Below, piece by piece: positions 200 to 15,470 of a stretch of DNA of 37,961 bases. The first letter of the stretch is position 1. Every line of letters starts with the position of its first letter. Origin of the DNA: Phoronis australis (Eukaryota; Animalia; Phoronida); contig NMRA01000092.1 in NCBI GenBank assembly GCA_002633005.1, forward strand, positions 370,464 through 408,424, read 5' to 3'. Position numbers and translations under genes: made by a program. The notes under the pieces were generated by a model, which saw only the letters and a list, made by a program, of their open reading frames with translations, was not told where the DNA came from and ran no database searches.

Positions 200-1423
200 G
201 TTCAGTTGCAAACGAATGCACCGAGTCCGAGTCGCCGCACCGCCTCTGTGAATTCACGAACACATTGAAGACAAAGGATAAATCTTCACCCAAATTCACT
301 AATTTCATGGCTTATTTGACGTTTCGCTGTTTCGATCTCGCGTTCACGACGTGTTTTAACATCCGACTTGATTTCTATTGTCCAATTCATACTTGGTTCC
401 TTATATCAGTCTCACCGGGGCGTGGTGTGTATCGCAAACTGTTTGCATACTTACTGTGGACTCCAGGGGAGGCAGCGTGGCCAAGTGTGATAGGTATTCC
501 GCTTTCATTAAAACCGATCAATGTGCTATATTGCTATGAATGTACCTTTTTCAAAAATAAAATTGTGTGGTAAGTTAATGACACATGAATATAAAACATA
601 CAAAACATATTTTTCTAATCTCTGTTCTTTTTCTTTCAGAAATATATACTTTTACTAGTTGACATGCCTTGGATTTTTTTTTCATATACGGATTAGAATG
701 AAGGTCGCTAAATAAGGTTTGAGATAACCTTAACGGTCTAAAATGTGCAATATCTGCCGTAACTCGGAAATAACCCAAAACGGAAGTTGACTTACGTAGT
801 AGATGGTTTCCAAAAGCCTACACATCATTGTGAAATTACATCAACTGTAGTAAGAAAATTATTGAAGTGTGCACTTGGATTTAAAAATTTGTAATAGTTT
901 GCTATGGAAATACTGTGCAAAACAAGATTTATCGGACTTCTTCGACGTCTGTGTGATTAAGGCACGGTTACTAAAGCATCTAGAATATCTTTAATGCAAA
1001 ATATGTCCCCCCATCCCAACAAGAATTTGACCCGGGCACCCTAAGTGTAATTCCATCACTAGTTATTGACAGATGGTCTTTCATTTTTTCTTCAACATTT
1101 TTGCTATGTCTTTCTTTTCCATGCTGCATCCGACCCTACGCCCCTACGCCTATGCCGGTCGTCACGTTTCACCCTAACGCCTTTAAACTATTGGGATAAC
1201 CTTACGCTCCCTGGCCCCTCGCTTCCTACGGCCCTGGCTTTTTGGGATCTGGTGTGTCCTGTTTTGCACACTGGCAAATAACTGAATACAGGCCCACCTC
1301 GCTCGCATTGTCACTAAAGTAGACGGAAAACTGTAAAAATCTTTAATGCTTCAAACCTGAATGTCTCAAGGCGCACCAAAATGGAACGCTACTGTACAGA
1401 CAACGTCCAGTGTTTAACATATC

Positions 1424-3589
1424 TTAGGAGGTCTCTTGGAATGTGACTTCCTCGTCACTGCTTTTATCGTCAAACGTTGCGCTCCAAGCATATATAGTCT
1501 CGAGTGATTTCGATTTTTCAATCTTCACTACCTTGTTTTTCATCTTTTCATCGCAGATCTCAAGAATGAGTCGATACAGCGCCCCTAGTCCAGGACATGC
1601 AACTTCCACATTTTCAAATGTATAAGGTTCGATAGCCTGTAATGACCGCTTTGCGGTGTTAACCTTAATAGTATTCGTCTTTACCACTAACAGGCGTTTC
1701 ATGAAATGCGGAGTCTGCGAGACCGGCCGTGTGATGCACTCCGCCCAGTTACGTGACCTTTGCTCCGATACACCTATGAGCATAAGTGAGGCTACTAAAA
1801 CGTCATGCGTCACTCCAGGTGGTTGTTTTAGTTTTCGTAAGACACCAAATACACGTTTATTAAACTTATTAGCAAGCTTCAATAGCTTTTTGTTTCGCGC
1901 ACGGTTTCGAAAATCCCCTCGATAACTGGTTGCCATTATTTGACGTAGTTTGACTAGATCACATCGATTGATAGCGTCATTAAACTCGTCGTCTTTTTCG
2001 CGTTCCACGGCACTGTGGCACACGTCACTGGCATGTCTTCGCCTTCTCTTTTTCAAGGCTCCTGTTTCGTCTACTTTCCATTGTCTCTGAGCAGGCAACT
2101 CGCCCACCTCCTCAACCATCTCTGCTTTCAGTTCAATTGCTTCTTCTTCGCCAATGCATGCATGTAGATCAAAACTCCTCTCCTCACTGATGGCTAAGAG
2201 CGGAGAGCTGGAGGATGTTGAGGGGGGCTCACAAAGGTCGAAATCGTCAGCCGGGTTTGTTCTCTGTTTTTCCTCGGTAGTTGAGGTCTTTGAAAAAGGA
2301 ACACTGGGTAAGGCCAAGTGTTCGTCGTTTCCGGTTTGTTCTGCGTCTGCTTCAATGGCTTGGCGTTTCTTTCGAACCGATCGTGCATACAAATATATGA
2401 CAAGAATGCATATGCAACAAAATGCTGTTACAACTACTACAATTATCAAAGTCGTGGTTGTCCTACCAATGTTACGTAATCCACATAGAGTACTTGCATT
2501 TGTCCTCCATTCACCTTTGAAGCACTCGAGCAGCTTCCTCGAAGCGTATCCTTTCTTACACGAGTAGGAGCATAAACTGAGTGACCGTCGTGAGCACATG
2601 GCGTCCAAATGAACGCCTTCGATACTGTCCGAACACTTGTTCTCTTGGTCAGTACATCGGTCAGCTGGATCTTTCTGAATGTATTTGATACAAGATGACG
2701 CAGGTGAACTAATCGTTCTGTTCAGAACCTGAATTGTCTCTCCATTTCTTGTTTTAAAAGGAACGTACCCAGCATCTCGAATTGCCAAGCCATAGTAGAA
2801 CTCAGACGTTCGACTTATTGAGGCGATGGGGAAACTTATTGTAAGTTTTCGTGTGCCATCTCGCCCCTTACATGACACAATTTTGGCCAATTGGTGGCGG
2901 TAGCAAACTTCAACGACACTAGACTTTTCCCGATCAGCGTGTAAGATTAAGCACGAGAACAATTTTGCGTCTTCACCATTAGTAAAAAATTCGACTTGAA
3001 TTTTCTTAGTGTTCAATATAAGTGATTTTATTTGACCAATTGCTGTTAAGAAATATACTTTGTTTAATGTAGAGTCAAACAGCATCTCTTTCACGTTAGA
3101 GAATCCGTTAGGTTGAATTTTAATTACAGTCTTTCCTGTTCCATTGTATGCAAATGAGCCCAGTTCGTCCTTTGTAACATAATACACTCGCTTTGATACT
3201 GAATCGTACGACATTCCCAAGATATCCGTATCTAGATCCCACAAGGAGTTGGGTAACCCTCCATTGACTATACGAGACTCCAGGAGTGACTGGGTACCTG
3301 AGTAATTGGTGACGTAAAACATCGAACCATAATCGTGATCGTAGTCAAAGGAGCCTATTTCTGTGGGCTTGGTTGTGAGTATCGTTCCCAAAATCACAAA
3401 GTTTGAAGTAATAAAGTCCATGGAGAAGGCATAAACCGTGTTTATAAATACAGTGCCATTCCATCTCTGCTCTCCTACAATGATGCCGTAGCATTTGCTG
3501 TTTATCCGAGCGTTAACCGGCTCCGGGAACGTAGGTAAAATGCAATGTAAAATAATAGCGAATGATAATAAAATCACATTTTCAAACAT
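1424..3589 (-). CDS. Intronless 721-aa single-pass membrane protein: signal peptide, YWTD/LDLR-B-like beta-propeller, Sushi/CCP, TM helix, cytoplasmic dynein-MTBD-like domain
   Basis: 2166-bp uninterrupted ORF. Hydrophobic N-terminus VILLSFAIILHCIL. Repeated blades SFDYDHDYGSMFYVT, GMSYDSVSKRVYYVT and EMLFDSTLNKVYFLT. Sushi pattern CSYSCKKGY..LECFKGEW..C (about 2480-2660). TM LIIVVVVTAFCCICILVIYLYA followed by RSVRKKR (about 2384-2450). Several NxS/T sites in the ectodomain. C-terminal LRKLKQPPGVTHDVLVASLMLIG..W motif. The ORF is solid; domain names are by eye. Confidence 0.9.
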   Translation of the reverse strand: MFENVILLSFAIILHCILPTFPEPVNARINSKCYGIIVGEQRWNGTVFINTVYAFSMDFITSNFVILGTILTTKPTEIGSFDYDHDYGSMFYVTNYSGTQSLLESRIVNGGLPNSLWDLDTDILGMSYDSVSKRVYYVTKDELGSFAYNGTGKTVIKIQPNGFSNVKEMLFDSTLNKVYFLTAIGQIKSLILNTKKIQVEFFTNGEDAKLFSCLILHADREKSSVVEVCYRHQLAKIVSCKGRDGTRKLTISFPIASISRTSEFYYGLAIRDAGYVPFKTRNGETIQVLNRTISSPASSCIKYIQKDPADRCTDQENKCSDSIEGVHLDAMCSRRSLSLCSYSCKKGYASRKLLECFKGEWRTNASTLCGLRNIGRTTTTLIIVVVVTAFCCICILVIYLYARSVRKKRQAIEADAEQTGNDEHLALPSVPFSKTSTTEEKQRTNPADDFDLCEPPSTSSSSPLLAISEERSFDLHACIGEEEAIELKAEMVEEVGELPAQRQWKVDETGALKKRRRRHASDVCHSAVEREKDDEFNDAINRCDLVKLRQIMATSYRGDFRNRARNKKLLKLANKFNKRVFGVLRKLKQPPGVTHDVLVASLMLIGVSEQRSRNWAECITRPVSQTPHFMKRLLVVKTNTIKVNTAKRSLQAIEPYTFENVEVACPGLGALYRLILEICDEKMKNKVVKIEKSKSLETIYAWSATFDDKSSDEEVTFQETS

Positions 3590-4390
3590 GTATGCCGTAA
3601 AACATGACTACGACGGATCTTAATGACATCATTTTATGACGTCGTACAATTTGTGTCATTCTATTGTCTGTTACGGACAATGGCACGCGGAAGGACATCG
3701 AAGATATTGAAATGAACACAAAAAATGCAGGGCAGAGTTGAGAAATTTTAAATGAATATGAGCCGGTCTACGCTGAATCACCCCGTCTACTACGGTTGGA
3801 TAATACGTTAGGTGATAAGATTGGAACTGAAATTGCCTGACCATTGCAGTTAATCAGGCACATAAGCTCAACCGACGGAAATTCTGTGGATTCAATTCTG
3901 ATGTTTCATGTCCAAGTATTGTCTTGCTACAGCTCTTACACGAAGCCACATAGTGTCACCACACAGAGAGTAATGGCACTGCATTCCCATACTTCGGAAT
4001 TCATTGTGTTGGTCTCATGCGTATATTATGGTTTGAACATTTTTCTTAAGAAAACGGTCCAGCAATGAGTCGAAACTGCCGTTGATGTTTAACTACAGCT
4101 TACTTACGCTAATCGATGACGATTTCTGGGTAAAATGAAATGCTTTGTTTAACAATTTTTGAGATACTAAACACTATGTTTGTCAATTAACAGATATCGT
4201 TTACAACTAAGTCTCTTAAATCTTTGAAATGATGCATGTCCGTATCCAAGGGAAGGGGGAATTTGGGATCCACCTTAGCACGTTGTATTTAATTCATATT
4301 ACCTGTACCTGAACATCTACCATTACCTCAATAATGAACTTTAACTAAAAACTACTTTTTGCTGTAAATGATTGTCATCTGACTCATTAA

Positions 4391-5518
4391 AGATTTCCCA
4401 CAATGCGTTTTTCTTAGTTTTTGAGGTTTCATTTAGCTAATATGAAATGAATACCATAAAATCTAACTAAGTGAGCAATTTTTATGCCAAATAGTTACGG
4501 TTTTTTTATTTTAAAGACAAATTAGTTATTTCCACGTTTCCCGCTAAATGATGTCATGGGTAGAAGACGTTTCATTGGTCACTTGACAATCAATTTCAAT
4601 AGCGGAACATAGCAGATCAGAAGACGAAGACGATCTTGAGCGAGAATTAGACAATTATGATACAGAGAGAGGAGAGAAAGGATACGGGCATCAGTCAAGT
4701 ACTTGGAGAATCAGAAAAGGAATTCTATTTCCCACTTAACGAATTTTCCTCGGCTTTGAGGCAGTGTGATTTCGACCCACTTGCACGTGAAATGCTGCAG
4801 ACATATTTGAGACACAACTAACTGAACCAAGGGGTGGTCAATATTCACAAAATAAACACTGACAAAGGCCACAGTAAACCTGGGTTACTCGTATCCACTA
4901 TCGCCATGATGGAATGAGCACGGTCTAAACACAATGCATAAGCTTACGTGTCGTAGCCCTCAATCTGGGCCGGGGCCTGGATTCACTCAACCTCGAATGG
5001 AAACAGTTTTTTAGTTATTTATAAAATTCGCAAATTTACAAGGTGTTCAGTCAGTCATCGTAACGCTGTTTTTGTGTTTGGTCGAAACACGATTCCTTGA
5101 AATATGCCGAACAAAGTGTGGCTACCAACTGAATCGCATGTTCCACACTGACATTCAACACTCTAGTGTGGCGCACAAATCGACGCCATTTTTGTGCAAA
5201 TTTCACGTATTTAGGAAATTTGAACACAAAAGAACGTTCTCAGTCAAGTTGCTGTTACTATAGCACAAACGCACATTTTCATGTCTCGGGAAAAAGCGGC
5301 TCTCCACGGACTTTCCTCACAACTCCTCAATATCGCACTGGTAAAACAACGGCAGAGACGGTCTTCCACCCATTTAGTACAACCCCTATAACAGTAAAAT
5401 ATATGTCTTTTGATTTTGGCTTGTTTTTTAACAACAGGTATACTAAAGGCTATTAAATCTTTTAAGATGTATAATTAATAACATTCTTTTCGCGACACAG
5501 GGTCATTGTGGGAACTCT
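4391..5518. mobile_element. Non-autonomous Kolobok-type DNA transposon (1128 bp)
   Basis: 15-bp terminal inverted repeats (TIRs) with 1 mismatch: AGATTTCCCACAATG (4391-4405) and CATTGTGGGAACTCT (5504-5518). TTAA on both flanks (4387-4390, 5519-5522). 5'-RR..YY-3' termini fit Kolobok rather than piggyBac (CC..GG). Confidence 0.8.
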
Positions 5519-6079: not shown

Positions 6080-6351
6080 AGTATGCAGAATCCACGGACA
6101 GATGGGGTAATAATTGCAGACAGTAAGCCAGTTTACTGTTATCGACAACCATCTCATTTCTGAGAGACTATGCAGTATCTATCATAGCTAAACAACGGTA
6201 TGAATTAGTGATCAAATCTTGTTTGATTTAAAGGAGAATGCCACCCGATTTAGTTAGTCTTTTTTACCGTCTTTTAAGACGATTAAAATCGGTCTATATC
6301 CACTTCGCCTCTTACACGGTCGAACTCACCTTGCCGTGAGGAAGGTGAGAA

Positions 6352-6684
6352 ATGACGCAGCGACGTCAGTGGTTCGTCTGCAGAGTGAATACCGCTATAC
6401 TGCGGTGCATCGTTCCCACTTGTCCGAACTATGAAGCTGCGAAGAAAGCGGGTATATCGTTTTTTCGACTTCATCGAGAGCCCGAAATGCTTAGAAAGTG
6501 TCTCGCAGTAGGGAAGAATGAAAGATACAATGTTAATAGCAAGTATGAGGCCGTGAAACATCTCCGTGTCTGTGGCAGGCATTTCGTCGACAATGATCTC
6601 TCTGACAAATTCCGGCTTACCAAAGAACTATCCATACATTCCGTTGCCTGTGCATGTTCACGGCGTCTGTCTAGTATTTCTTGA
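6352..6684 (+). pseudogene. THAP zinc-finger fragment (N-terminus of a transposon protein)
   Basis: RCIVPTC..GISFFRL..LRVCGRHF fits the C2CH THAP consensus (CxxxxC..FF.FP..W..VCxxHF). The conserved P and W appear substituted (H, C) and no catalytic domain follows. Confidence 0.75.
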
Positions 6685-14189: not shown

Positions 14190-15470
14190 TCAAAGTACGA
14201 TTTAGGCCCTGATCAAGTGTTCAATGCAGACGAAACGGGGTTTTCGGTCAAGGATACTTACAAAGCTAAGGTCATCGCATCAAGTGCGGACAAAGCAGTA
14301 TTTCAGCGCCAAGTCAAGTTTTCGGGGCACCAACGCCACTTTTTGCTGCGCATGCAGCTGGTAAGGTTATGCCACCGACAGTAATATTCCAAAGCGGGTT
14401 GCCAACTGGCTTGTCACCATCAGACATAGGCAGCTGGAGTTACCAGTCTACAAAGTCTGGTTACGTAAACACGGAAATATTTTTTGGTGGTTTAGAGATG
14501 TTTTCATTCCAGCAAGTGTTGTGCGACATAACCGCCCGGTCATGCTGATATTAGACAACCATGCATCTCACTTGTCGAAGGACGTAACAGACATTGCGCA
14601 ATCAAAGAACGTCACCCTCCTCTGCCTTCCTCCACACTCATCGCATATTTTGCAACCTCTGGATGTGGGGTATTTTGGTCTTTTGAAACGGCAGGTGGCC
14701 CGGTTTGCCATTAATCTGGGCGGATCTCGTGTAATTCCCAAGTCGCTTTTACCAAACCTTATAAGAGCTGCTACTCAAAACATCACCAAAGAGGCCGTCA
14801 TAGCAGCTGTCAGGGTAGCAGGCATTTTTCCCCTGAGACCAGTCACGCTGCCAGCGTCGACTGTTGGCAGTTCAGTGCCGCCTGTGGTAACTACATCACC
14901 AACTCTTTAGTTCGTCTCTGCATAGTCCTGGAGTCTCTCAAGAAGATCTTAGTGCCACCAACACAAACGGTCAGTAATCGACCATGAAGCGGAAACTTCA
15001 TGCTAGGCTTTTGACATCAGCCGATGTTACCGTCGGCGAAAAGACCGAAACCAGTGAAGTGCATAGGAAAGGGTCTACTAGCCTTTCCAGCCCCAAAGTG
15101 GCAGTGTGAGGGAGCAAGATCTCCAGGAATAAGGGGAAGGCTATAAAGTCAAAAAACAAAGCGTCGCGACGATCAGCAACAGTAGACAGTGGGTCACAGT
15201 CAGGTGTCAGCGGAGTGGGAGCGCTTCAAACTGAGGACAGCGATTACAGCGAAAACGATGACAGTGCAGTGTGTTGCCAGCCGTGGGCGGTTTTCACCGG
15301 AGGCGCGATGTCGTTTACTAACAATCATCAACTGGGTGGCGTGCGACGTTGTCGGGTGCAACCATTGGACCCGCCTGTGATTTTGCACTTCGATAGAGAG
15401 AGTTGAACGACAGCAGAAGTTCAAGTGCGGGTGCCACGGTACAGAGGCTCACATCATGGAGTTTGAAGAG
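14190..15470 (+). pseudogene. pogo-superfamily (DD35D) transposase pseudogene with C-terminal PHD-like finger; 5'-truncated and frameshifted
   Basis: QVFNADETGF (about 14214), AAGKVMPPTVIF, KSGYVNTEIF/WF, LILDNHASH and LPPHSSHILQPLDVGYF, with 35 residues between the 2nd and 3rd Asp. Frameshifts near 14330 and 14485, stop at 14910. PHD-like remnant CQ..WVACDVVGCNHW..KFKC at about 15265-15440. Confidence 0.9.

Follow-up and report, generated by a model that had tools for sequence, protein, structure and literature searches.

A dynein-type microtubule-binding domain fold in the cytoplasmic tail of a predicted receptor from Phoronis australis

A predicted membrane protein of Phoronis australis carries in its cytoplasmic tail a homologue of the dynein microtubule-binding domain (MTBD), which is a new architecture for a known domain. 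The protein, P0001, is encoded by an intronless open reading frame at 1424..3589 on the minus strand of the window, by which we mean the whole stretch of 37,961 nucleotides that was analysed, and its 721 residues are predicted to form a type I single-pass membrane protein. That the tail module is an MTBD-fold homologue residing in a real gene we regard as nearly certain. A previous sequence-only reading had placed an MTBD-like module at 1550-1990, and these coordinates are correct, covering aa 534-680. It had also not recognised the architecture from any characterised family; this agrees with our searches of sequences and of open-licence literature, in which no described or second example of a transmembrane (TM) protein with an MTBD was found. 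Its further suggestion of an ‘undescribed system’ holds for the architecture only, because motor-free MTBD modules proved to be widespread.

The frame extends from stop to stop over 1424..3607 with an ATG at 3589, and all motifs quoted in the sequence-only reading lie within it. Expression was assessed in RNA runs bearing the same species label, aligned to the window. In two of the three raw-read runs (X1 and X2), reads span the whole ORF on the expected strand and without joints, at a bin depth of ~12-38; this unspliced, stranded cover of the whole ORF places ectodomain, TM segment and tail in one transcribed reading frame. The third raw-read run (X3) contained no reads on the ORF, and a fourth RNA run, available as contigs, gave no match to it. 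Downstream, the 3' UTR (990..1423, minus strand) contains two possible polyadenylation signals, at about 1347 and 995, and the read cover stops at around 1300-1390 in X1 and around 1000 in X2. Reads and window differ at four fixed sites (3083, 3116, 3494 and 3527), all of them amino-acid changes between aa 21 and 169 and none in the TM segment or tail; four sites are too few for a selection test. On the plus strand, a divergent transcript (window 3620-4300) begins within ~100 bases of the 5' end of the P0001 gene and is present in X1 and X2 (depth up to 25), not in X3. As its longest ATG ORF comprises only 55 aa, it is probably non-coding and transcribed from a bidirectional promoter.

The domain order, with all features on the minus strand, starts with a predicted signal peptide at aa 1 to ~24 (3518..3589; N-terminal hydropathy 1.9), and the membrane is predicted to be crossed once by a helix at aa 380-402 (2384..2452; Kyte-Doolittle 19-mer score 3.25), followed by basic residues. 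The hydrophobic N terminus, the single TM peak, the basic residues behind it and the placement of the N-glycosylation sequons, five of five on the outer side, predict a type I topology in which the tail faces the cytoplasm. The sequence-only reading had labelled the outer part as a propeller and a Sushi module, and both labels stand as weak leads, with Pfam blank. The beta-rich ectodomain at aa ~30-300 (2690..3502) could possibly be a diverged LRP/YWTD-type propeller: its ESM Atlas features point to LRP-type clusters at 0.79-0.81, a level reached by one third of shuffles, and a profile of four putative blade repeats finds LRP2 at E 0.45. It gave no Pfam match, including to Ldl_recept_b (PF00058), contains no canonical YWTD motifs, and its single-sequence model has a pLDDT of 32. 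The six-cysteine module at aa 319-369 (2483..2635) has Sushi/CCP-like spacing in its Cys positions; the Sushi Cys/Trp pattern is visible in the sequence, and the module finds complement factor H at E 1.2 and has no Pfam match to Sushi (PF00084). LRP and cueball-type YWTD propeller receptors thus have the type I topology and a weak ectodomain feature similarity in common with P0001, but P0001 features a Sushi-like module where those have EGF, and a folded MTBD-like tail.

On the cytoplasmic side, a Ser/Glu-rich linker at aa 403-526 (2012..2383), with a basic cluster at aa 514-519, is likely disordered, judging from its composition. It is followed by two predicted helices at aa 527-556 (1922..2011; AlphaFold pLDDT 60-67), by the MTBD-fold module, which includes short stubs of CC1 and CC2, at aa 557-690 (1520..1921; H1-H6 core at ~578-664), and by a short acidic C-terminal tail at aa 691-721 (1427..1519), with eight acidic versus three basic residues over aa 690-721. 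Of the motifs quoted in the sequence-only reading, the first begins with aa 580 (nt 1852) and the final one occupies aa 671-678 (nt 1579-1556). The quoted pattern is present, except that the spacer between Gly and Trp has eight residues instead of seven, and it starts ~177 residues past the TM segment, after ~125 residues of linker and ~50 of predicted helices, rather than after ~130 mostly disordered residues.

How is this module linked to dynein? Direct searches of Pfam, NCBIfam and PDB sequences returned nothing relevant for the tail, PF12777 included, so that the proposed Pfam check succeeded only transitively, through homologues that match this family themselves. A phmmer search of the tail against 1.84 billion representatives gave five matches at E up to 0.001, three of which (P0003, P0004, P0005) are MTBD-like modules; the proteins that contain them are a Pinctada KY/transglutaminase-like protein with three module copies, one from Batillaria (two copies) and an unnamed one (four copies). 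The Batillaria two-copy and the unnamed four-copy protein match Pfam MT PF12777 at E 2e-9 and 5e-15. The other two matches, P0002 and P0006, were discarded as repeat-driven artefacts. A search from the Pinctada module added four further modules, from Pinctada and Montipora-type EF-hand proteins.

Scored against a profile of 15 homologous modules built without the query, the tail reaches 47.5 bits, a score attained by none of 2000 full and none of 2000 block shuffles, whose maxima are 7.5 and 11.4. As 11 of these 15 modules had been retrieved with the help of the query, the shuffle test was redone with the four that had not: here, the tail scores 22.6 bits against shuffle maxima of 6.8 and 7.3, with 0 of 4000 shuffles reaching it. 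Overall, query-free profiles give the tail 22-47 bits and shuffles at most 16, and the tail is the sole segment with E < 1 among the 974 six-frame segments of the window. When a query-free 8-row profile was compared with the PDB, it retrieved 51 sequences with E values of 10 or lower, the best being 1.3e-12; bar one designed protein, they are dynein heavy chains by name or size. The query itself is closer to the motor-free modules, scoring 15-25 bits in pairwise comparison with 11 of 13 of them versus 1-7 bits with two dyneins. Against a profile of two dyneins the tail scores only 3.4 bits, which 55 and 75 of 2000 shuffles also attain, and a profile comparison with hhalign yields a probability of only 59%. 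Identity to any homologue is 25% or less. The metazoan motor-free modules have the same eight-residue loop between Gly and Trp, which is shorter in the two aligned dyneins. At the level of sequence, the link from the tail module to dynein is thus a transitive one, via motor-free modules.

The predicted structure points in the same direction. An AlphaFold model of the tail, made on a 10-row alignment without dyneins, has a pLDDT of 74 and a pTM of 0.66 and contains the six-helix MTBD fold between CC1 and CC2; being alignment-guided and built on homologues, the model has this fold partly imposed on it. In the AlphaFold and Foldseek check proposed for the tail, the top 12 Foldseek rows are all dynein-containing entries, and the best E of 6.5e-3 lies above the 0.001 line. 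In a structural search of 48,161 chains, dynein MTBDs came first, and rows of unrelated fold stayed at Z 7.2 or less. The model matches 5ayh with Z 14.2 (rmsd 3.1, 129 aligned) and 3err with Z 14.1 (rmsd 2.3, 125 aligned), followed by 8i3j and 6l4p at Z 12.9 each and 2rr7 at Z 10.9, and the matched region, aa 557-690, takes in all of H1-H6 together with the last part of CC1 and the first part of CC2. These Z scores have to be read with the search tool's own warning that models made mostly of helices may score Z 13-14 against unrelated structures, and the structural case stands because it concurs with the sequence results. Of the two yeast structures, the low-affinity 6kjo (Z 12.5, rmsd 2.6) is slightly nearer to the model than the high-affinity 6kjn (Z 11.3, rmsd 3.8), which, coming from a prediction, is weak evidence. 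A viral structure library gave no match (best E 0.88) and the ESM Atlas no usable match for the tail.

Could the module be a chance helical pattern, not homologous to the dynein MTBD? We consider this very improbable. Such a pattern would fit the lack of a direct Pfam or PDB match, the high Z scores open to unrelated helical models and the dependence of our model on its alignment; however, it leaves the shuffle controls, the pairwise scores to 11 of 13 motor-free modules and the colinear, full-length match over six helices and both stalk stubs without explanation, and it is largely refuted by the shuffle controls together with the query-free profile match to the PDB. MTBD homology is well supported by query-free profile scores above those of shuffles, by the structural overlay and by motor-free intermediates that match only dynein MTBDs. 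The MTBD-like assignment of the sequence-only reading is therefore confirmed by both a transitive profile match and a structural match.

Compared with the dynein MTBD (mid PF12777; 3ERR, 5AYH, 6KJO, 6L4P, 8I3J), the query has the same six-helix fold between CC1/CC2 stubs, at Z 11-14, and shares with it basic contacts on H1, the Pro-Pro motif that follows this helix and the Trp that precedes H3. In contrast to dynein, it lacks the AAA ring, the linker and the long coiled-coil stalk, is only 13-18% identical and is borne on a TM protein; no AAA+ ring, linker or long-stalk domains were found in the complete, unspliced 721-aa ORF.

What generally emerged from the searches is that motor-free copies of the MTBD fold are common, occurring in KY/hillarin-like, EF-hand and tandem proteins of invertebrates and protists. 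The sequence-only reading had already mentioned such versions in uncharacterised invertebrate proteins, and we found them in Pinctada, Batillaria and Montipora-type proteins. The nearest sequences to the query are modules of KAK3098481.1 and KAK3097041.1 (Pinctada KY/transglutaminase-like), KAG5712244.1 (Batillaria), XP_068681150.1 (Montipora EF-hand) and P0005, which are motor-free like the query but, unlike it, retain the Glu of H1 and the Trp of CC2. The KY/hillarin-like transglutaminase proteins differ further: P0003 has a transglutaminase-like core and a KY Ig-like domain, whereas P0001 has neither. A TM-level hydrophobic stretch was present in none of the 11 homologous proteins checked, several of which are fragments. 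In open-licence papers and preprints, we found motor-free dynein-type MTBDs nowhere described as a family; the ‘MTBD-like’ literature on TTLL11 concerns an unrelated motif. Among the relatives, P0014 and loci L001-L005 make up a coral-type family, named ‘trichohyalin-like’ by NCBI, whose members combine EF-hands at the N terminus with a long, charged coiled coil and an MTBD-like module, and the Batillaria tandem MTBD-like protein P0007 bears the UniRef label ‘Nucleoprotein’, apparently an automatic mislabel.

The fold also appears in solved non-dynein structures. The tail model matches chain 7jtk_C at residues 459-591 (Chlamydomonas radial spoke 1) with Z 10.6, rmsd 2.6 and 128 aligned residues, 9fqr_Xl at 1343-1494 (bovine sperm axoneme) with Z 9.9, 9ya2_L at 1207-1457 (Toxoplasma intraconoidal microtubule; a 162-residue chain) with Z 8.0, and 7jrj_I (Chlamydomonas recombinant spoke head and neck) with Z 6.8. 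Like the query, these chains have a motor-free MTBD-like fold, but they are soluble cytoskeletal proteins and not membrane receptors. From numbering and length, we take 7jtk_C and 7jrj_I to be probably RSP2, 9fqr_Xl possibly EFCAB5 and 9ya2_L probably ICMAP2. If the identity of its chain holds, ICMAP2 would be a motor-free, microtubule-bound use of the fold. PMC12819142 describes its globular tenth as binding the intraconoidal microtubule every 8 nm, and since PMC10774369 reports no recognisable domain in ICMAP2, the MTBD-like fold may be an unreported assignment. RSP2 and EFCAB5 would, if those chain identities hold, be uses of the fold away from the doublet lattice: the C-terminal part of RSP2 extends to the spoke head surface (PMC10774353), and EFCAB5 bridges RS3 to RS2 through RGS22 (PMC11779644). 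The domains of these chains are not called dynein-like in the sections of the literature consulted. The structural matches suggest unrecognised MTBD copies in radial-spoke and apicomplexan proteins, and the occurrence of the same fold in Chlamydomonas radial-spoke chains means that the fold alone is no guarantee of lattice binding.

But what of the tubulin-contact surface? According to PMC7042235, yeast dynein forms six salt bridges, through K3117, E3122 and R3124 in H1, R3152 and R3159 in H3, and R3201 in H6. Mapped by alignment, with H3 read by eye, two of the six are kept in the query, both of them basic residues of H1 (K3117 as K578 and R3124 as R585), and four are lost (E3122 to V583, R3152 to A616, R3159 to V623/S624 and R3201 to V663), with R621 lying near the lost R3159 position. 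Both alpha-tubulin contacts are among the losses. The other modules are more conservative: 13 of 15 have Glu at the E3122 position and 11 of 15 Lys or Arg at the R3201 position, where the query has Val, and all 15 have the Trp at the start of CC2 that is Leu in the query. The query core is the most basic of all 16, with a net charge of +9 versus -5 to +4 in the other 15; its H1 carries a charge of +5, H6 is net acidic, and basic stretches precede the core. By these residues, a canonical high-affinity microtubule footprint appears unlikely, while a weak electrostatic contact with microtubules is plausible. The coupling to microtubules that the sequence-only reading put forward thus has the four lost contacts, and the use of the fold in a radial-spoke chain, against it.

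On this basis we tentatively propose, with confidence somewhat short of even, that P0001 is a weak, static membrane-to-microtubule tether. The proposal is closely rivalled by a reading in which the MTBD fold was kept but now serves the receptor tail as an adaptor for protein interaction or signalling, with no microtubule binding, which we hold to be a serious possibility though a doubtful one. Loss of both alpha-tubulin-side contacts and of the H3 arginines speaks for an adaptor, and the fold does occur in radial-spoke chains (probably RSP2) and, among homologous modules, on KY/transglutaminase-like and EF-hand proteins without a shown microtubule role. A long end branch on which the hydrophobic pattern is retained is likewise in keeping with an adaptor. 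The kept basic H1 contacts and the unusually basic core, however, speak for the tether, and an adaptor has no known partner.

No whole-protein relative was confirmed among 192 stretches in a metagenome scan, and a word-index search for tail homologues among proteins of 396-1262 aa yielded none from 284 candidates. Scanning with the query-free alignment gave five loci among 68 stretches, none with a TM segment in the same ORF, and a second TM + MTBD protein was found in neither the sequence nor the metagenome searches; the window holds no second module copy (paralogue). In a tree, the query sits on a long end branch (1.74), unplaced, with its hydrophobic pattern retained, and thus no donor is named. 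The helices at aa 527-556 resemble those preceding the KY/EF-hand-type modules to a non-significant degree (207 of 3000 shuffles reach the likeness). The module would stem from the motor-free MTBD-like modules of invertebrates and not directly from dynein. At the coral-type loci L002-L005 the module is split over separate ORFs, as opposed to the intronless P0001, which fits a retroposed or shuffled origin but does not show it.

A third reading takes P0001 as a young, lineage-specific and possibly retroposed chimeric gene whose captured module is decaying, with no selected function. The missing whole-protein relatives, the intronless gene beside coral-type loci with the module in pieces, the loss of a Trp that all 15 other modules keep and the silence of run X3 would all suit it. 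We nevertheless judge it improbable, as the frame of 721 codons is unbroken and expressed, the core pattern has outlasted a divergence that leaves no homologue above 25% identity, and the fixed differences spare the tail, four sites being too few to test selection.

Finally, we would like to place the favoured tether reading into a mechanistic context. A diverged, motor-free MTBD on the cytoplasmic side would tether the membrane to microtubules weakly and statically, contacting tubulin through the basic H1 face and the nearby basic stretches instead of the full H1/H3/H6 footprint of dynein. As the footprint is partial, a firm hold would depend on receptors being clustered through ligand binding or adhesion; the ~125-residue linker would give reach into the cortex, and without an AAA ring or long stalk the protein could not cycle between affinities. 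Cortical microtubule capture usually works via multi-protein adaptors or anchored motors. It is conceivable, though we would wager against it, that a surface receptor with a captured dynein tip pins microtubules to the membrane at adhesion or ligand sites without motor or adaptor, as an integrin-like single-chain link. If true, a receptor that carries its own dynein-type grip on a single chain would link the outside directly to microtubules. The protein offers a natural test of whether the MTBD fold functions outside a motor and of how far its contact surface can drift. Even without microtubule binding, the MTBD would be a mobile module that was shuffled onto a membrane protein.

Elsewhere in the window, the plus strand carries a DDE_1 transposase fragment at 14365-14910 (Pfam E 5.9e-15) and a THAP domain ORF at 6349-6684 (Pfam E 3.5e-8), likely a transposon remnant. 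Short dispersed repeats at 628-733 and 4409-4470 draw reads with unrelated flanks in all four RNA runs.
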